From a virus (taxonomy: Duplodnaviria; Heunggongvirae; Uroviricota; Caudoviricetes): a stretch of 14,827 bases of DNA. Every line of letters begins with the position of its first letter. Within the stretch, counting starts at the first letter, position 1. The DNA lies in the IMG/VR virus record IMGVR_UViG_2534681999_000018, positions 1 through 14,827 of that record. The stretch is one strand, 5' to 3'. Position numbers and translations under genes: made by a program. This document shows positions 7,902 to 13,366 of this stretch, piece after piece. The notes under the pieces are model-generated. The model worked only from the letters and a program-made list of their open reading frames with translations. It was not told the DNA's origin and made no database searches.

Positions 7902-8153
7902 ATGACCCAAAAACGCAGAGACAGAACAGAGCCAAAATATAAAGCGTTAGACATGACTGAGCACACCTTAAAGGTGGCAATCAGAACGATAGACCGCCAC
8001 ACGCGGGAAGGATACGCGAAGGAACATCCCGACCTGATAAGCGCATTCATGACCACGGCGGCGGCAAACTTTGCCACGCTGACAGAACGGGAGATTGCCG
8101 AAGCGGAACAGGTAACAACCATCAACGTTAAAACCGGAGAGGTGGAATTATGA
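7902..8153 (+). CDS. Hypothetical protein
   Basis: Track ORF 7872..8153 begins with GTG inside the iterons; ATG at 7902 preferred; stop overlaps the ssb start (ATGA). Confidence 0.45.
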   Translation: MTQKRRDRTEPKYKALDMTEHTLKVAIRTIDRHTREGYAKEHPDLISAFMTTAAANFATLTEREIAEAEQVTTINVKTGEVEL

Positions 8154-8560
8154 CGGCACAGATAGCCGCTTACGGGCGGCTGGTGGACGACCCGCAGGTA
8201 AAACAGACCAGCAAGGGCACACCGATGACGCTGGCGCGTATGGCGGTATCTTTGCCATGCAGCCAGGCACAGGACGGACAGGCGACGTTATGGTTATCGG
8301 TCATCGCATTTGGCAAACAGGCCGGCTTCCTGGCTAAACATCAAAAAGGCGATGTTGCCAGCGTATCCGGCACGATGCAGGTAAGCCAGTGGACCGGACA
8401 GAACGGAGAAACGCGGCAGGGCTGGCAGGTTATCGCAGACAGCGTAATCAGTGCCCGCGCGGCACGTCCAGGCGGGAACAGACGCAAAACCACAGGCACA
8501 CAGGGTAATCAGCCACCAGCGGGAGGCGATGACCCTTACGGTGATGATATTTCGTTCTGA
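8150..8560 (+). CDS. ssb: Single-stranded DNA-binding protein (SSB)
   Basis: 136-aa ORF; OB-fold-like N-terminal region, Gly/Pro/Gln-rich linker and acidic C-terminal tip DDPYGDDISF resembling the SSB DDDIPF tail. Confidence 0.8.
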   Translation: MTAQIAAYGRLVDDPQVKQTSKGTPMTLARMAVSLPCSQAQDGQATLWLSVIAFGKQAGFLAKHQKGDVASVSGTMQVSQWTGQNGETRQGWQVIADSVISARAARPGGNRRKTTGTQGNQPPAGGDDPYGDDISF

Positions 8561-8570
8561 GGGGGTGACG

Positions 8571-8843
8571 ATGGTACATGACCGCATAGCGGAGGAACTG
8601 GAGGCGAAAGGCTTTTACCGGAGGGCGGCGGCGCGATGGGGTGAAGTCATGCAGCTGGTGGAGACAGACAAGGAACGGCATCACATCACGATGCGACGGC
8701 TGGAATGTTCAAGGAAGGCACAGAGGGCACCGGAGCCGCCGGATAATTTCGGAGACCTGAAAAAGGCAGTCGATCGCACTTATGCCGAAATGGGTATAGA
8801 TGGTGCTGGTGATGAAATATGGCGCAATTACCAGGACAGCTAA
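8571..8843 (+). CDS. PerC/Pch-family transcriptional activator homolog
   Basis: 90-aa product from ATG 8571 (GAGGGGG RBS); N-terminal MVHDRIAEELEAKGFYRRAAARW matches the recalled PerC-family signature. Confidence 0.6.
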   Translation: MVHDRIAEELEAKGFYRRAAARWGEVMQLVETDKERHHITMRRLECSRKAQRAPEPPDNFGDLKKAVDRTYAEMGIDGAGDEIWRNYQDS

Positions 8844-8849
8844 TCAAAC

Positions 8850-8873
8850 AGCCGGAGAAATCCGGCTTTTTTT
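8850..8873 (+). terminator. Rho-independent terminator, copy 1 of a repeated terminator motif
   Basis: GCCGGAGAAATCCGGC hairpin followed by 7 T, just after the perC-like stop. Confidence 0.75.
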
Positions 8874-8969
8874 GCACCAGTTGAAACGGTATGGCGCATT
8901 ACCGGGTTTTCGTCACGGTCAGGCATAGTTACTATCTGAAACAAACAGACACAACAGAGGAAAAAAACA

Positions 8970-9194
8970 ATGCCGATGAAATTTGATGAGATATTAAAAC
9001 AGCGTGATAAATACCATGCTGACAACATGGAGACGATGAGCATCAATGATTATCGCGCATTCCTGGAGACGGGCGCACTGATTGAAAAGGATCAGCATGG
9101 TTTTGTGAGATGTGCTCTATCCGGTGAAATGCTGGCGGTAAATCCTGAACAGATAGATGCATTGATAGAATTTCTGAAAGAGATCAGAGACTGA
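8970..9194 (+). CDS. Hypothetical protein, moron-like (own unit between two terminators)
   Basis: 74-aa ORF with GAGGAAAAAAACA upstream of the ATG; flanked by terminators at 8850-8873 and 9215-9236. Confidence 0.5.
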   Translation: MPMKFDEILKQRDKYHADNMETMSINDYRAFLETGALIEKDQHGFVRCALSGEMLAVNPEQIDALIEFLKEIRD

Positions 9195-9214
9195 GCCAGC
9201 ACACAGCACACATA

Positions 9215-9236
9215 GCCGGAGCAATCCGGCTTTTTT
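9215..9236 (+). terminator. Rho-independent terminator, copy 2 of the repeated motif
   Basis: GCCGGAGCAATCCGGC hairpin followed by 6 T; one loop mismatch relative to copies 1 and 3. Confidence 0.75.
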
Positions 9237-9248
9237 GCGCCCAAAAAA

Positions 9249-9284
9249 AGCCCGATAAGGTCAGAGGGTTCTTATCGGGCTTTT
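9249..9284. terminator. Second hairpin, potentially bidirectional terminator
   Basis: AGCCCGATAAG / CTTATCGGGCT stem flanked by an A-run upstream and T-run downstream. Confidence 0.5.
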
Positions 9285-9360
9285 GCATATGAGGTTTTTG
9301 GATGCACTGGCGTTCGTGATCGGGATAATCATTTCATAATTTGCAACATAACTCAATATC

Positions 9361-9411
9361 ATTGCATAAAATGCAATTCTGATTATAATCAGGACTGGAT
9401 AAACATCCAGT
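9361..9411 (+). promoter_or_regulatory. Promoter upstream of the capsid operon overlapped by three palindromes
   Basis: TTGCAT (9362-9367), 16-bp spacer, TATAAT (9384-9389); palindromes ATTGCATAAAATGCAAT (9361-9377), CTGATTATAATCAG (9379-9392) and ACTGGATAAACATCCAGT (9394-9411). Confidence 0.55.
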
Positions 9412-9445
9412 TATGATTTTTTTAGTCGAAGAGGAATTTCTTACT

Positions 9446-9652
9446 ATGGCTGAAGAGAAAAAAAGCGGTGTTTCGGTGTACATAAGCCCCGAAATCGTGG
9501 AGGTGCTCAAGCAGCGCCACAAAAAAAACTATGAAGCTGGCGTTGCGGCTGGACTGGATCCGCTGATGACGCCGGAGCCGTCGATAGGTTCACTTGTACG
9601 CTCTTATTTACTTGCGGCGCTTGGGATGCATAAAAATTATGGGGGTGAATAA
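9446..9652 (+). CDS. Hypothetical protein
   Basis: 68-aa product from ATG 9446 (GAGGAA RBS); stop overlaps the capsid gene start (TAATG). Confidence 0.5.
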   Translation: MAEEKKSGVSVYISPEIVEVLKQRHKKNYEAGVAAGLDPLMTPEPSIGSLVRSYLLAALGMHKNYGGE

Positions 9653-10707
9653 TGGCAGGCAAAGCAACGGCACTTAACACTAACCAGCTTTTCATGTACC
9701 TGAATCGCGGGGATATTGCGGATTTTAAATTCAGCCCTCTGTTTACCACGCTGTTTTTCCCGAACGTGGCGACATTCAGCACGCAAAACATCATGCTGGA
9801 TACCCTGGACATTGAAGAAGTCACCATGTCGGCGTTTTGTTCGCCTATGGTGGGTAGCCAGGTTCAGCGCGATAAAGGGTACGAAACCAGCACAATCAAA
9901 CCTGGCTACATGAAGCCAAAGCACGAAATCGATCCAACGAAAACCATCATGCGCATGGCTGGAGAAGATCCGGCACAGCTTAACGACCCTACCTATCGCC
10001 GTATGCGCCTGATTACTGGCAACATGCGCCGCCAGATAAACGCCATTAAGGCACGCGTGGAATGGCTGGCGGTGAATGCGGTAACGACCGGAAAAAACAT
10101 CATTGAGGGCGAAGGCATAGAACGCTATGAAATCGACTGGAAAATACCGGAAAACTGCATCATAGAGCAGGCCAAGGGTAAAAAATGGTCCGAGCAGGAT
10201 AAAGACATGCACGACCCAATCTATGACATCGAGCTTTATGCTGATCAGGCTGGTTGCCCCGCAAACGTCATGATTATGGGCGCTGAGGTATGGCGCACAT
10301 TACGCAGCTTTAAAAAATTCCGTGAGCTGTACGATCTTTCCCGTGGTTCAGAATCCGCCGCCGAACTGGCCTGTAAAAACCTGGGCGAAGTGGTGAGCTT
10401 TAAAGGCTATCTTGGTGATCTGGCCCTTATCGTCTATTCCGGCAAATACACTGACAGCGATGGTACCGAAAAATATTTCCTTGAGCCTGATTTGCTGGTC
10501 CTGGGTAACACCAACAATAAAGGGCTGGTGGCCTATGGTGCGATAATGGATCAGGAAGCGGTAAGAACGGGCGCAACACAAAACATGTTTTACCCGAAAA
10601 ACTGGATTGAGGACGGCGATCCGGCGATTGAGTACGTGCAGACACACAGTGCACCGCAGCCGGTACCGGCAGATATTCGCAAATTTGTTACCGTCAAAAT
10701 TGGTTAA
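9652..10707 (+). CDS. Major capsid protein, lambda gpE family
   Basis: 351-aa product aligns by eye along its whole length with lambda gpE (341 aa), e.g. FKFSPLF, PGYMKPKHEIDP, DPTYRRMRLI, YSGKY, LVLGNT, YPKNW, HSAPQP. Confidence 0.9.
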   Translation: MAGKATALNTNQLFMYLNRGDIADFKFSPLFTTLFFPNVATFSTQNIMLDTLDIEEVTMSAFCSPMVGSQVQRDKGYETSTIKPGYMKPKHEIDPTKTIMRMAGEDPAQLNDPTYRRMRLITGNMRRQINAIKARVEWLAVNAVTTGKNIIEGEGIERYEIDWKIPENCIIEQAKGKKWSEQDKDMHDPIYDIELYADQAGCPANVMIMGAEVWRTLRSFKKFRELYDLSRGSESAAELACKNLGEVVSFKGYLGDLALIVYSGKYTDSDGTEKYFLEPDLLVLGNTNNKGLVAYGAIMDQEAVRTGATQNMFYPKNWIEDGDPAIEYVQTHSAPQPVPADIRKFVTVKIG

Positions 10708-10719
10708 CGGGGGGATTCT

Positions 10720-11055
10720 ATGGACACTCCATACATTGAGTTATTTGCAGGCAGTCAGCAGGTATCCACGACGTTGGTACATTTTGCCGCTGATGCTGGC
10801 GTTATTCAGGAATTTACCCCGCTGATGCTGGCAGACAATGGCGAGTTTAAGCCGTGGGATGGTCAGGAATCTGGCAAGGCTGTTTATCTGACCTCGTACC
10901 CTGTGGACACGTCAAAGCAGAAATCAGCACAGTGTTACAAGACGGGGATATTCAATATTGCCGCCGTTAACTGGCCTGAGAGCGTCGACACCGATGCGAA
11001 AAAATGCGCCGCCTTTGCGGGTTCCGGCGTATCCGTTCAGCCGCTGGCCCGATAA
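10720..11055 (+). CDS. Head decoration protein, lambda gpD family
   Basis: 111-aa product (lambda gpD is 110 aa) with TPLMLA, YKTGIFN, WPE and AAFAG segments matching gpD; GGGGGG RBS. Confidence 0.85.
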   Translation: MDTPYIELFAGSQQVSTTLVHFAADAGVIQEFTPLMLADNGEFKPWDGQESGKAVYLTSYPVDTSKQKSAQCYKTGIFNIAAVNWPESVDTDAKKCAAFAGSGVSVQPLAR

Positions 11056-11067
11056 GCAGGGGGAACG

Positions 11068-11481
11068 ATGGCAACGAATGAAAGCATCATGACGCTACCG
11101 CTGGCGAGTAAATTTAAAGTCGAAGCGCGGGCAATGGCTGACAGAGGTTTATCAACCTATGAGGCCGTATATCAACTAAACAAACTGGAAGAGCAGGACA
11201 AGCCGTGCGCTGATGCGATTATGGCGCTTCATGAGCATAAAGACTATCAGCCGCTGTTGCGTGCAATGGCAAACGTGCCTTGTATCGATGTTGGTACGGC
11301 TAAAAGCATCCTTAGCATGACCATAGAGCAGGAACGTCCGAAGGTTGCGCCGGAACTTACCGCAGCCTTTGAAAACTTTATGGACATGCACAGCCCGCAA
11401 GCCGTATCAGCTGGCATGGCATACGATGGCAGAAACCAGGGCGATGACGGCGACATCGATCGCATACTGAAAACCATCTGA
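11068..11481 (+). CDS. Hypothetical protein in the capsid/packaging module
   Basis: 137-aa ORF with AGGGGGAA RBS; no recognisable motif; between the gpD-like gene and cos. Confidence 0.55.
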   Translation: MATNESIMTLPLASKFKVEARAMADRGLSTYEAVYQLNKLEEQDKPCADAIMALHEHKDYQPLLRAMANVPCIDVGTAKSILSMTIEQERPKVAPELTAAFENFMDMHSPQAVSAGMAYDGRNQGDDGDIDRILKTI

Positions 11482-11486
11482 GACAA

Positions 11487-11509
11487 GGCCGGAGAAATCC
11501 GGCTTTTTT
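11487..11509 (+). terminator. Rho-independent terminator, copy 3 of the repeated motif
   Basis: GCCGGAGAAATCCGGC hairpin followed by 6 T, identical to the copy at 8850-8873. Confidence 0.75.
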
Positions 11510-11510
11510 A

Positions 11511-11580
11511 CGGGTCCTTCCTGGAATTATGGCCCGTTACGGGGCGGCGACCTCGCGGATTTTCGCTATTTATGAGCCTT
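11511..11580 (+). other. Lambda-type cos site, copy 1 (cosN GGGCGGCGACCT at about 11542-11553)
   Basis: CCCGTTACGGGGCGGCGACCTCGCGGATTTTCGCTATTTATGAG matches the recalled lambda cos junction (…CGTTACG|GGGCGGCGACCTCGCGGGTTTTCGCTATTTATGAA…) almost base for base; lies about 150 bp upstream of the Nu1-like gene as in lambda. Confidence 0.8.
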
Positions 11581-11686
11581 TTCAGGGTGGTGGTGGTGGT
11601 TTTGTTGTTTGATCTATCTTTATGAATGAAAAGGGAAAGATGCAAGCAATACACCAACCTGAAGCAGTAATTAAGTTGGTGTATTA

Positions 11687-12229
11687 ATGAAATCTCATCT
11701 GATGAACAAAAAAAACATGGCGAAAAGCTGCCGTGTAAGTGCGACAGCGTTCGACAAGTGGGGAGTAACTCCCGTTGAGCGTAAAGGCCGTGAGGCGTTT
11801 TATGATGTTGCCAGCGTGATAGAAAATAGGGTTAACAATGCAATTAGCCAGCTTATAAACGACAAAGGCGAGATTGACGATGATGAACTTTTACGAGTCA
11901 GGATCAGATTACTGACAGCACAGGCAGAGGCGCAGGAACTTAAAAACGATCGCGATCGCGGTGACGTGATTGATACTGAGTTTTGCCTGTACGCGCTTTC
12001 AAAGCTGGCGAGTCAGATTTCATCAATCATGGACAGCCTCCCGCTTACTATGCAAAGGAGCTTCCCACAGATTACCCCCGCCATGCTGGACAGGCTTAAA
12101 AGGGAAGTGGTTAAAGCCTGTAATGCCAGTGCCAGAGTTGCCGACAACCTCCCACAGATACTGGCTGATTACTTGAAAGAAACAACCGGAAACGTACCGG
12201 AAAAGTTGCTACAGAAGAAAGGCGAGTAA
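11687..12229 (+). CDS. Terminase small subunit, lambda Nu1 homolog (element-encoded)
   Basis: 180-aa ORF (alternative start ATG 11702, MNKKNM...); alignable with lambda Nu1 over the whole length (NKK, FYDVASVIE, LLTAQAEAQELKNDRDRGDVIDTEFCLYALSKLASQISSIMDSLPLTMQRSFPQ, PQILADYLKETTG); weak RBS. Confidence 0.85.
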   Translation: MKSHLMNKKNMAKSCRVSATAFDKWGVTPVERKGREAFYDVASVIENRVNNAISQLINDKGEIDDDELLRVRIRLLTAQAEAQELKNDRDRGDVIDTEFCLYALSKLASQISSIMDSLPLTMQRSFPQITPAMLDRLKREVVKACNASARVADNLPQILADYLKETTGNVPEKLLQKKGE

Positions 12230-12257
12230 CAGACGCGCAATTATTGAACAAAAATGA

Positions 12258-12319
12258 GAAAGGATCTGATAATGGCATTTTCTGGCTAAAATGCCTCGTG
12301 TCAGATCCTTTCTTTTTTT
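12258..12319 (+). terminator. Compound hairpin terminator after the Nu1-like gene
   Basis: Outer stem GAAAGGATCTGA / TCAGATCCTTTC enclosing inner stem GGCATTTT / AAAATGCC, followed by 7 T. Confidence 0.6.
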
Positions 12320-12379
12320 AATATTTTCATTGTTAAACAGTCTGTTACAGAGAAGAAGATCGGATCTGACTTTTGCCGG

Positions 12380-12451
12380 AAAATTCTCATAAACAGATAA
12401 AAACCGCGAGGTCGCCGCCCCGTAACGGGCCATAATTCCAGGAAGGACCCG
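12380..12451 (-). other. Lambda-type cos site, copy 2, inverted (cosN reverse complement AGGTCGCCGCCC at about 12409-12420)
   Basis: 12404-12451 is the exact reverse complement of 11511-11558 (48 bp); further lambda-like sequence (TTTATGAGAATTTTCCGG on the minus strand) continues toward the Nu1-like gene. Confidence 0.75.
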
Positions 12452-12484
12452 ACGACACCAGACTATCAGAGCGATGGGGGCACA

Positions 12485-12766
12485 ATGACAGAAGCCGAAC
12501 TACTGGGATTAATCCGCCGCGTCGCCGGAATCAGCCAGCAGCATGACGAACAGGCCACACAGCCGGACAGCGTGACCGCTGAAAATTATGTGCGTGTTGT
12601 AGCGGAAGTGATGCGCCGTGATGGTATAGAACTTAATGGCGTTGATATGCGCAACATACGGAACCGCGTTCTTGAAATGCTGGCCTACAATCGCCGCGTT
12701 GAACTGTATCGGGAGAAAGAAAAAATAACGTACCACTGGAAGAAGCCGGAACGGCTGCGGCGGTAA
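12485..12766 (+). CDS. Hypothetical protein
   Basis: 93-aa ORF with GGGGG RBS; outside the inverted cos pair; no recognisable motif. Confidence 0.5.
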   Translation: MTEAELLGLIRRVAGISQQHDEQATQPDSVTAENYVRVVAEVMRRDGIELNGVDMRNIRNRVLEMLAYNRRVELYREKEKITYHWKKPERLRR

Positions 12767-13366
12767 CTTGCTGATATTCCCGATAACGCAAAATTGCGCT
12801 GGCTACATCCTCACATCTGAGGACTGTTAATCAGAAGGCCGGAATATATTCACAAACTACGAAATTTTCGTAGTTTAATTAATGGTCAGATTAATCGCTA
12901 ACCCGCTGATATTTTCGGAAACCTCAATTTGAGGAAGTCGGAAGCGTCACCCTTCATATTCTGAATGGTCATAATGACCACGCAGACCATCAAGGCAACC
13001 ACAACGAACATCGTTACGGTTGGAGCTTTTACCCCACTGGGGGAAAGGTATTACGATAATCATAACACCTACCGAACAGGTAAAACCCACCAGCCTGATT
13101 AACAGTTAACCGGAAAAAAAATCCGGTAGCCCCGTTATGGGGATCCCCATATCGACATTAACGCCCCTCATGAATTGGTGCGCTTCCCCCTGGAAAGATT
13201 ACCCGCCTGTATATTTCTTGTGTCTATTTGTTCCACGTTGTTTCATACAGTGCACCGAACGGTGTAGTTAATGGTGTAGTCAATTTGCTGTTTTTAGCAC
13301 TTTTTGCAGTGTGGGTTGTTTAATTAAATCAATGGGTTGCCTTGCTGTGGTGATAAAAGGACATAT

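Follow-up and report, generated by a model that had tools for sequence, protein, structure and literature searches.

Why should a single small terminase gene be enclosed by two lambda-type cohesive-end (cos) sites that point towards each other? The question is raised by a stretch of 14,827 nucleotides (nt), positions 1 to 14,827 of the Caudoviricetes record IMGVR_UViG_2534681999_000018, which was analyzed as a whole and is called the window here. Between positions 11511 and 12451, the window carries a gene for a small terminase subunit (TerS), with one cos site, cos1, on its upstream side and a second, inverted site, cos2, on its downstream side. The analysis indicated that the inverted cos pair is a known feature of a known satellite family, namely Escherichia coli phage-inducible chromosomal islands (PICIs) related to EcCICFT073, and that the window is a variant with TerS in place of the protein Rpp. 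With moderate confidence, we read the region as a dual-specificity packaging module, in which two lambda-type cos sites of different specificity are placed in inverted orientation around one specificity gene.

The inverted cos pair and its island family

The region comprises the following features, with distances given in base pairs (bp) from cosN.

11511-11586, plus strand: conserved arm of cos1, with cosQ at 11512-11518 and cosN at 11542-11553, lambda-like to bp 45 after the start of cosN
11586-11686, plus strand: cosB of cos1, with (GGT)5 and then TTTGTTGTT at 11586-11609; predicted TerS site
11687-12229, plus strand: terS, full-length small terminase of the Nu1 family, 180 amino acids (aa), Pfam Phage_Nu1 (PF07471)
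12230-12408, minus strand: cosB of cos2, complex phage type, with R cores CAGATCC
12262-12268 (8-mer 12262-12269): R1 of cos2, bp 153-159, forward
12302-12308 (8-mer 12301-12308): R2 of cos2, bp 113-119, inverted
12362-12368 (8-mer GGATCTGA at 12362-12369): R3 of cos2, bp 53-59 from cosN, forward
12376-12451, minus strand: conserved arm of cos2, with cosN at 12409-12420 and cosQ at 12444-12450, overlapping the inner 33 nt of the cosB at 12230-12408

Exactly two copies of the lambda cosN sequence, GGGCGGCGACCT, are present in the window, one per strand; at up to one mismatch, the chance expectation was 0.08, and none of 200 shuffles reached two matches. A repeat finder placed the two copies in the arms of an inverted repeat (11511-11586 and 12376-12451) with a length of 76 nt, 91% complementarity, and a distance of 789 nt between the arms, which include an exact core of 48 nt (11511-11558 and 12404-12451). 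Both arms contain the 7-bp cosQ core GGGTCCT, on the plus strand in cos1 and on the minus strand in cos2, and the gap between cosQ and cosN is 23 nt in both copies, equal to that of the lambda-type cos of Stx1 phage. A lambda-like stretch follows cosN in both arms, and both cosB sides face inward. The original prediction, which had described a Nu1-like terS between two lambda-type cos sites that are inverted to each other, was therefore confirmed, with the exact core lying inside a longer repeat.

Positions 4882-14827 of the window are 99.94% identical to a complete O157:H7 chromosome, in which an island of ~11 kb is located between roxA and phoQ. PICIs were recognized by a terminal integrase, an AlpA-type regulator, a replication module, unidirectional genes, a size of ~10-15 kb, and the absence of tail and lysis genes. 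The RefSeq annotation of the identical O157 element, together with Pfam, gives the hallmarks of a Gram-negative PICI, with an integrase at one end, a regulator, a replication module, and a one-way (+) gene order. EcCICFT073 occupies the same site in strain CFT073 and runs parallel to the window island gene for gene. Judged from these comparisons, the element and EcCICFT073 are alleles that share the roxA/phoQ site. The layout of the cos pair is also shared. In CFT073 (L008), a cos on the plus strand at 7559 is followed by rppA at 7660-8094 and by a second cos on the minus strand at 8298-8309, which is the published EcCICFT073 cos2 and corresponds to cos2 of the window.

The packaging module of EcCICFT073 was described by Fillol-Salom et al. 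(2018, ISME J, PMC6092414; 2019, Mol Cell, PMC6739421) and by Murialdo and Feiss (2022, PMC9026076). According to the 2018 and 2019 papers, both cos sites are functional on plasmids, where they drive plasmid transduction, and cos1 is essential and recognized by the RppA-TerS complex (PMC6092414, PMC6739421). The same papers describe cos2 as dispensable, with its deletion raising the transfer by lambda and phi80 (PMC6092414), report that no phage cosB was found in either cos, and leave the reason for two sites open (PMC6092414, PMC6739421). In the literature text that was accessible, we found no statement on an inverted cos orientation in PICIs, and the orientation may be drawn in the figures. 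The view of the original prediction that two convergent cos sites are abnormal did not hold, because EcCICFT073 has a published cos1/cos2 pair with the same layout, flanking rppA in CFT073 likewise, and this arrangement is standard for islands of its type.

We rejected the explanation that the second cos copy is an assembly artefact. In its favor, no complete genome reproduces the entire window, which combines parts of two islands. However, the part that matches the complete O157:H7 chromosome contains both cos sites, and the published EcCICFT073 has the same layout. Moreover, 486 of 5426 complete E. coli genomes contain at least 80% of positions 11300-12800 in one piece, and 224 records match this region at an identity of at least 99%. 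With the region in one piece in 486 complete genomes, the second copy is genuine.

Two cos sites of different type

The predicted TerS matches the Pfam profile PF07471 with E = 3.2e-23; the score is 82.6 bits (cut-off, 30), and the match extends over residues 33-148 and over positions 35-162 of the 164 in the profile. Alignments with lambda Nu1 and a 21-like TerS cover the whole length of the protein, with conservation of the oligomerization region and of the C-terminal region that binds the large terminase subunit (TerL), a function known for this part of TerS in lambda (PMC4669245). Since the TerL-binding region is kept, the island TerS can probably recruit the TerL of a helper phage. The N-terminal winged helix-turn-helix aligns with residues 1-50 of N15 gp1, and the recognition helix reads SATAFDKWGV, compared with SVQAFDKWGV in N15. 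The nearest phage TerS is N15 gp1 itself, with 44% identity; none of the 50,697 phage records searched contained a protein with at least 60% identity to the island TerS, and a PDB sequence search with it gave no significant match.

A scan of species-representative genomes with the single TerS protein returned nothing, and an alignment-based TerS scan of species-representative genomes returned 36 loci, of which 22 were analyzed, including 20 phages. A TerL open reading frame (ORF) of ~580-680 aa overlaps the TerS gene in all 20 phage relatives. The island contains no TerL gene, which is expected since it is a satellite, and the next gene after terS is an ORF of 93 aa. Satellite-like loci from Kosakonia sp. 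S29 (L020) and Superficieibacter sp. (L021) carry TerS proteins that are 54-55% identical to the island TerS, in the order capsid-like gene, decoration-like gene, ORF of 127-128 aa, cos, and TerS.

In EcCICFT073, the slot of terS is filled by rppA. The 180-aa TerS is found in the window and in L002, L003, L004, and L006, and its DNA-binding domain is invariant across these five loci. The cassette protein of L005 and CFT073 is Rpp, which has 144 aa, is identical in both (one RefSeq accession), and matches RppC at 5e-31; the window TerS has no similarity to RppC and is thus not an Rpp of the EcCICFT073 type. A third form is present in E. coli RM10466 (L015, 1164-1934), where the C-terminal half of TerS is of the island type but the N-terminal DNA-binding domain and the preceding cosB are like those of phage 21, within flanks that are 99.5% identical to those of L013, an island with an ordinary cassette. 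This chimera shows exchange with phages through two regions, the cos at one end and, at the other, the 3′ half of terS, which is conserved. The specificity gene is a swappable cassette, which can hold rpp, the island TerS, or a chimeric phage/island TerS. The natural chimera also resembles the laboratory hybrid terminases described by Feiss (PMC4669245).

At cos1, phage genomes match only the conserved arm (window 11505-11587), with no match to the cosB beyond. In addition to the (GGT)5 stretch, this cosB contains an inverted pair formed by TACACCAAC at 11650-11658 and GTTGGTGTA at 11675-11683. At bp 48-59, the window has GGTGGTGGTGGT, at the coordinates of the R3 of N15, which is GAGGTTGTTGTT (PMC4669245), with differences at 5 of 12 positions. 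All loci with an island-type TerS carry (GGT)n and then TTGTTGTT from ~bp 45 after cosN, and the GGTGGTGGTGTTGTTGTT motif follows cosN in the Kosakonia and Superficieibacter elements too. The rpp-type islands have GTGAAGGTGACACCACCACC in the cosB of cos1, and L015 with its chimeric TerS has a 21-like cosB. Across 14 loci, including the two other genera, the cosB of cos1 thus co-varies with the cassette protein in three classes. Because of this co-variation, cos1 looks like a private site of the cassette protein, a relationship that has been established experimentally for RppA only. The evidence for a cosB at cos1, which consists of an N15-like motif at bp 45-68 and the inverted pair, is weaker than that at cos2.

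At cos2, the R cores lie in copies of the 8-mer GGATCTGA, of which there are four in the window (12262, 12301 on the minus strand, 12362, and an unrelated one at 2680) against 0.42 expected, while none of 200 shuffles reached four. The R cores of lambda are located at bp 53-59, 114-120, and 154-160, which places cos2 of the window within 1 bp of the lambda register, and the R-core register of the 21-like prophage of CFT073 is identical to that of cos2. Such a set, in which R2 alone of the three R sequences is reversed, corresponds to the "complex cosB" of Feiss and colleagues. The cosB of cos2 is also homologous to that of the lambdoid phage SerU-LTIIb (72% over 146 nt), in which the R sequences GCAGATCC, GGATCTGG, and GAGATCC are followed by the Nu1 start codon. 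By all these features, cos2 is a complete cos of the helper-phage type. The original prediction had proposed the GGATCTGA motifs as R-like elements of a cosB for the island TerS. The SerU-LTIIb match and the lambda register support their R-type nature, but not their assignment to the island's own TerS, which was ruled out because its DNA-binding domain is invariant and the cosB of cos1 stays constant with the protein while the cosB type of cos2 varies.

This variation extends over several types. The CAGATCC type is present in the window, L013, and L015, the 21 type in L002 and L014, and the ATGTCCGG type in CFT073, L005, and L016. In L004 and L006, cos2 is of the mEp460/phi458 type; over 164 nt the identity is 86-88%, the cosN differs (GGGCGGGAGCAT), and about where cosN falls in the alignment, one of the mEp460 genome records begins. 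In E. coli ETEC-2264 (L003, 3693-3766), cos2 is truncated, with the cosQ side and ~9 cosN bases joined directly to the terS stop codon, and the deletion end-point must therefore lie inside cosN. No inverted second cos was found at the 20 phage loci with an N15-type TerS. The Kosakonia and Superficieibacter elements likewise had none in the ~1.5 kb downstream that were compared, and their 5.5-kb loci contained no minus-strand pattern resembling cosQ and cosN. A resident O157 helper with a CAGATCC-type cosB was sought as a candidate partner of cos2 and not found among the matches listed; the Stx1 and icd prophages of O157 carry a lambda-type cosB.

The combination of parts distinguishes the region from known packaging systems. 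With EcCICFT073, it shares the island family, the roxA/phoQ site, the flanking genes, and the inverted lambda-type cos pair around one specificity gene, whereas the specificity gene is Rpp there and a full-length Nu1/N15-type TerS here, the cosB of cos1 is CACCACCACC there and (GGT)n/GTTGTT here, and the cosB of cos2 is of the ATGTCCGG type there and of the CAGATCC type here. Like the complex cos of lambda and 21 (R3-I1-R2-R1), cos2 of the window has cosQ, cosN, and three R cores in the lambda register with R2 inverted. Unlike them, it is not placed before the start of terS, but abuts the terS 3′ end tail-to-tail, on a satellite and inverted to a second cos. N15 (Feiss et al., 2015, PMC4669245) is similar in its TerS, gp1, with the near-identical recognition helix, and the period-3 G-K-T motif of cos1 lies at bp 48-59, the position of R3 in its simple cosB; in contrast, the window has no TerL gene after TerS, its cosN is that of lambda and not that of N15, and its R3-like sequence diverges as described. 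An analogy may also be drawn to the TerS(S) strategy of the pac-type staphylococcal islands (SaPIs), in which a satellite small terminase pairs with the helper large terminase and redirects packaging. However, the window island is of the cos type and not headful, its TerS belongs to an unrelated family, no Ppi-like partner was identified, and SaPIs have one pac site.

Cassette inversion, proposed packaging mechanism, and rival explanations

Flipped cassettes were searched for by building the expected inversion junction, in which the left flank, cosQ, and cosN were joined to the cosB of cos2 and the reversed 3′ end of terS. The terS-type flipped junction was present in one piece in 6 genomes, compared with 486 unflipped ones, and the rpp-type flipped junction in 24, compared with 67 in the CFT073 orientation. 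Flips were verified in L013, L014, and L016. In L013 and L014, terS lies on the minus strand; the phage-type cos is then at the left end of the cassette, and the private cos, which points left, is at its right end. L016 and L005, both at phoQ, have flanks that are 99.6-99.7% identical and 813-bp cassettes that are 100% identical in reverse, which amounts to a clean and recent inversion. Altogether, at least three independent flips were documented, and both orientations occur for three cassette types. Within clones, flips are rare, as all near-identical O157-type copies among the matches listed have one orientation.

The outer cosQ parts of the arms usually differ, with TTTCCGGCATATGGACCC on the left and TTCCTGGAATTATGGCCC on the right, and both arms of the window, L005, and L016 have the right-hand version. 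The perfect 48-nt core can therefore be attributed to gene conversion between the arms, and ordinary homologous recombination between such homogenized arms seems sufficient for the flips. Thus, the idea that recombination or inversion between the cos sites is relevant to this locus, which was one of several offered in the original prediction, was borne out by the flipped cassettes found in nature.

In the dual-specificity module that we favor, the island TerS would probably recruit the helper TerL directly to cos1, after which TerS and the borrowed TerL would cut cosN and package island concatemers rightwards, from cos1 to the next cos1. As TerS replaces Rpp, the helper TerS should not be needed at cos1; Rpp, in EcCICFT073, achieves as much by giving the TerS of the helper a new target. 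At cos2, helper terminase in its unmodified form would probably start if its specificity matches, and package leftwards, from cos2 to cos2. In this role, cos2 would be a second key for the island as well as a sink that draws helper terminase away from the phage, so that a decoy titrating helper terminase, as suggested in the original prediction, is possibly part of the best explanation. The cos sites of the window would be cleaved by terminase and used to start or end packaging, which has been shown on plasmids only for the two sites of EcCICFT073 (PMC6092414, PMC6739421).

The requirements of the two packaging steps offer a possible reason for the orientation. Initiation requires cosN and cosB, and termination requires cosQ and cosN (PMC4669245). 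With a distance of ~870 bp between two active cos sites, only the inverted layout would then keep packaging that starts at one from terminating at the other; a pair in direct repeat would delete the module, because termination needs cosQ ahead of cosN. Gene conversion, occasional inversion of the cassette, and cassette exchange with phages and other islands are side effects of the inverted repeat. The gain in transfer after deletion of cos2 would fit a mutual interference of the two sites when the helper specificity (lambda, phi80) does not match cos2.

Several points weigh against this module. The binding of the island TerS to cos1 and to the helper TerL is suggested by co-variation and sequence conservation only. 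The dependence of termination on cos orientation is assumed from the general lambda literature. The second site is evolutionarily dispensable, being truncated in L003 and absent from the Kosakonia and Superficieibacter relatives, and the third repeat of the CFT073 cos2 is oriented opposite to the canonical R1. A CAGATCC (SerU-LTIIb)-type cosB with Nu1 was present in only 38 of 5426 E. coli genomes with no O157 among the matches listed, and a matching resident helper consequently lacks support. Finally, the raised transfer of EcCICFT073 by lambda and phi80 after cos2 deletion (PMC6092414) means that cos2 is costly with these helpers, and its benefit is only proposed.

The main rival takes cos2 to be a relic without a selected function, a nearly neutral by-product of island-helper recombination at cos, of which the inverted form is merely what survives. 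This would account for the deletion result in EcCICFT073, for the truncated or missing cos2 of L003 and the two distant relatives, and for the recombination of the module with phages that is evident from the chimeric TerS and 21-like cosB of L015. Nevertheless, we consider it unlikely. Of the 13 E. coli island loci that were read, 12 have an intact cos2, with everything from cosQ to a full-length cosB region present, and there are at least four phage-like cos2 types, which argues for repeated replacement by functional versions rather than decay. The R cores keep the phage register in the CAGATCC and 21 types, and both cos sites of EcCICFT073 drive plasmid transduction in the published experiments (PMC6092414). 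Rather improbable, in our estimate, is a cos-bounded cassette that acts as a terminase-driven invertible and exchangeable module, flipping through its cohesive ends and hedging between the packaging specificities of island and helper. Cutting both inverted cos sites would give a cassette with two identical left-type ends and a backbone with two identical right-type ends, so that the cassette could re-anneal either way. Such a flip is geometrically possible, but the data do not require terminase. If true, and combined with a private cos1 and a helper-type cos2, it would let the satellite reverse its packaging polarity and swap specificity modules with any lambdoid helper it meets. A programmed switch, by which terS/rpp expression or the direction of packaging would be toggled with high frequency, would fit the two natural orientations of three cassette types and the identical cassettes of L016 and L005. 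It is nonetheless very doubtful, as there is no invertase beside or in the cassette, which encodes terS alone between 137-aa and 93-aa neighbors without recombinase domains. The terS-type ratio of 486 to 6 and the single orientation of the near-identical O157-type copies among the matches listed, in a region matched by 224 records at an identity of at least 99%, also speak against frequent toggling, and the homogenized outer cosQ parts of the arms point to ordinary homologous recombination.

Divergent packaging that mobilizes the flanking chromosome in situ, reaching phoPQ to the right of the island and the roxA side to its left, was another proposal of the original prediction, and it is very unlikely. 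A co-oriented lambda-type cos of the icd prophage is indeed located downstream of cos1, at a distance of 16.0 kb in O157 PV15-279 (L017:6243, equal to NZ_AP018488 position 1505242) and of 37.2 kb in CFT073 (L008:44745). However, 16 kb is far below the capacity of the lambda head, and 37 kb is at its lower limit. We note that phoPQ-purB-icd could in principle be packaged from cos1 to the cos of the icd prophage. Helper terminase can package from an upstream to a downstream chromosomal cos, but termination needs a second co-oriented cos, and when none is present at about one head-length, packaging stalls and gives tail-less, non-infectious particles (PMC4669245). Mobilization of phoPQ is unlikely because packaging from a lone cos yields such dead particles, and cos phages do not engage in lateral transduction (PMC12829572, 2026). 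The same architecture is also present at other integration sites (narP/yejO, clpS, smrA, and mdtJ).

The island around the module

In O157, the island genes follow the order integrase, helix-turn-helix regulator, Icd-like genes, RepA helicase, SSB, PerC, gpE-like, gpD-like, 137-aa ORF, cos1, terS, cos2, and 93-aa ORF. Outside the module, the window contains the following features.

2329-3567: integrase (Pfam), the sole recombinase of the island
6301-7701, plus strand: RepA helicase
9652-10707, plus strand: gpE-like major capsid protein, Pfam Phage_cap_E (5.5e-50)
10720-11055, plus strand: gpD-like head decoration protein, Pfam HDPD (5.1e-18)
11068-11481, plus strand: 137-aa ORF (RefSeq annotation)
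11483-11510, plus strand: terminator-like hairpin GGCCGGAGAAATCCGGC followed by a T run, abutting the cosQ of cos1
12485-12766, plus strand: 93-aa ORF without a Pfam match, right boundary of the invertible cassette

The trio of gpE-like, gpD-like, and 137-aa genes is also found upstream of cos1 in EcCICFT073, and the 93-aa ORF, which lies downstream of the cos pair there as well, closes many E. coli islands as a conserved final gene, also those that form capsids. EcCICFT073 is reportedly packaged in phage-sized capsids (PMC6739421). The homologues of lambda E and D (9652-11055) are present on the window island as on EcCICFT073 despite these capsids. Helper-dependent induction, excision, replication, and high-frequency transfer have been demonstrated experimentally for EcCICFT073 only (PMC6092414).

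The hairpin GCCGGAG-AAT-CCGGC with a T run forms a family of direct repeats with three copies (8846-8875, 9210-9239, and 11483-11512), each after one of successive island genes, and these copies are probably intrinsic terminators. A consensus scan of 11000-12900 for promoters and terminators did not flag the hairpin at 11483, the only copy in the scanned stretch, and was uninformative. Direct repeats rich in AAAAGTGAGG are located at 7700-7743, 7771-7794, and 7868-7911, just 3′ of the RepA helicase gene, and are likely iterons of the island replication origin; in the literature, the origin is placed 3′ of the replication gene (PMC6092414).

As to the hybrid nature of the window, the stretch 1-4639 corresponds (98.1%) to the left end of another PICI, one that sits within gpA (terL) of a lambdoid prophage integrated at mlrA (L018). 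The switch point (junction 4640-4881) falls within an Icd-like stretch of ~560 bp that is common to both islands, and none of the 5426 complete E. coli genomes contains the junction in one piece. The junction is therefore either a misjoin or the product of a large chromosomal rearrangement that involved two islands. Directly before the integrase at 2329, there is a DUF1441 gene (687-1163) and a gpA-type large terminase that is cut off after 335 aa (1160-2167). Helper-embedded PICIs, which integrate into a late gene of a prophage, have been described (PMC10111431), and the DUF1441 gene and cut gpA upstream of the integrase look like the signature of such an island.

PICIs spread virulence and defence genes among enterobacteria, and what they transfer depends on how they capture the packaging machine of the helper. 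No explanation accompanied the reports of 2018-2019 on the two cos sites of EcCICFT073; this locus and its relatives suggest a testable one, with a private site that would be served by the island's specificity protein (Rpp or TerS), a public site that would be copied from helpers, and an inverted layout that would keep the two sites from cutting out the module. In the accessible text of the EcCICFT073 literature, we found no statement that cos2 has the geometry of a phage cos and varies in type, that cos1 co-varies with the cassette protein, or that the cassette is inverted and exchanged in nature. The swapping and flipping of the specificity cassette matter for predicting which phages can mobilize an E. 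coli O157:H7 island, as well as for engineering PICI-based delivery vehicles, in which an unnoticed second cos lowers titres.

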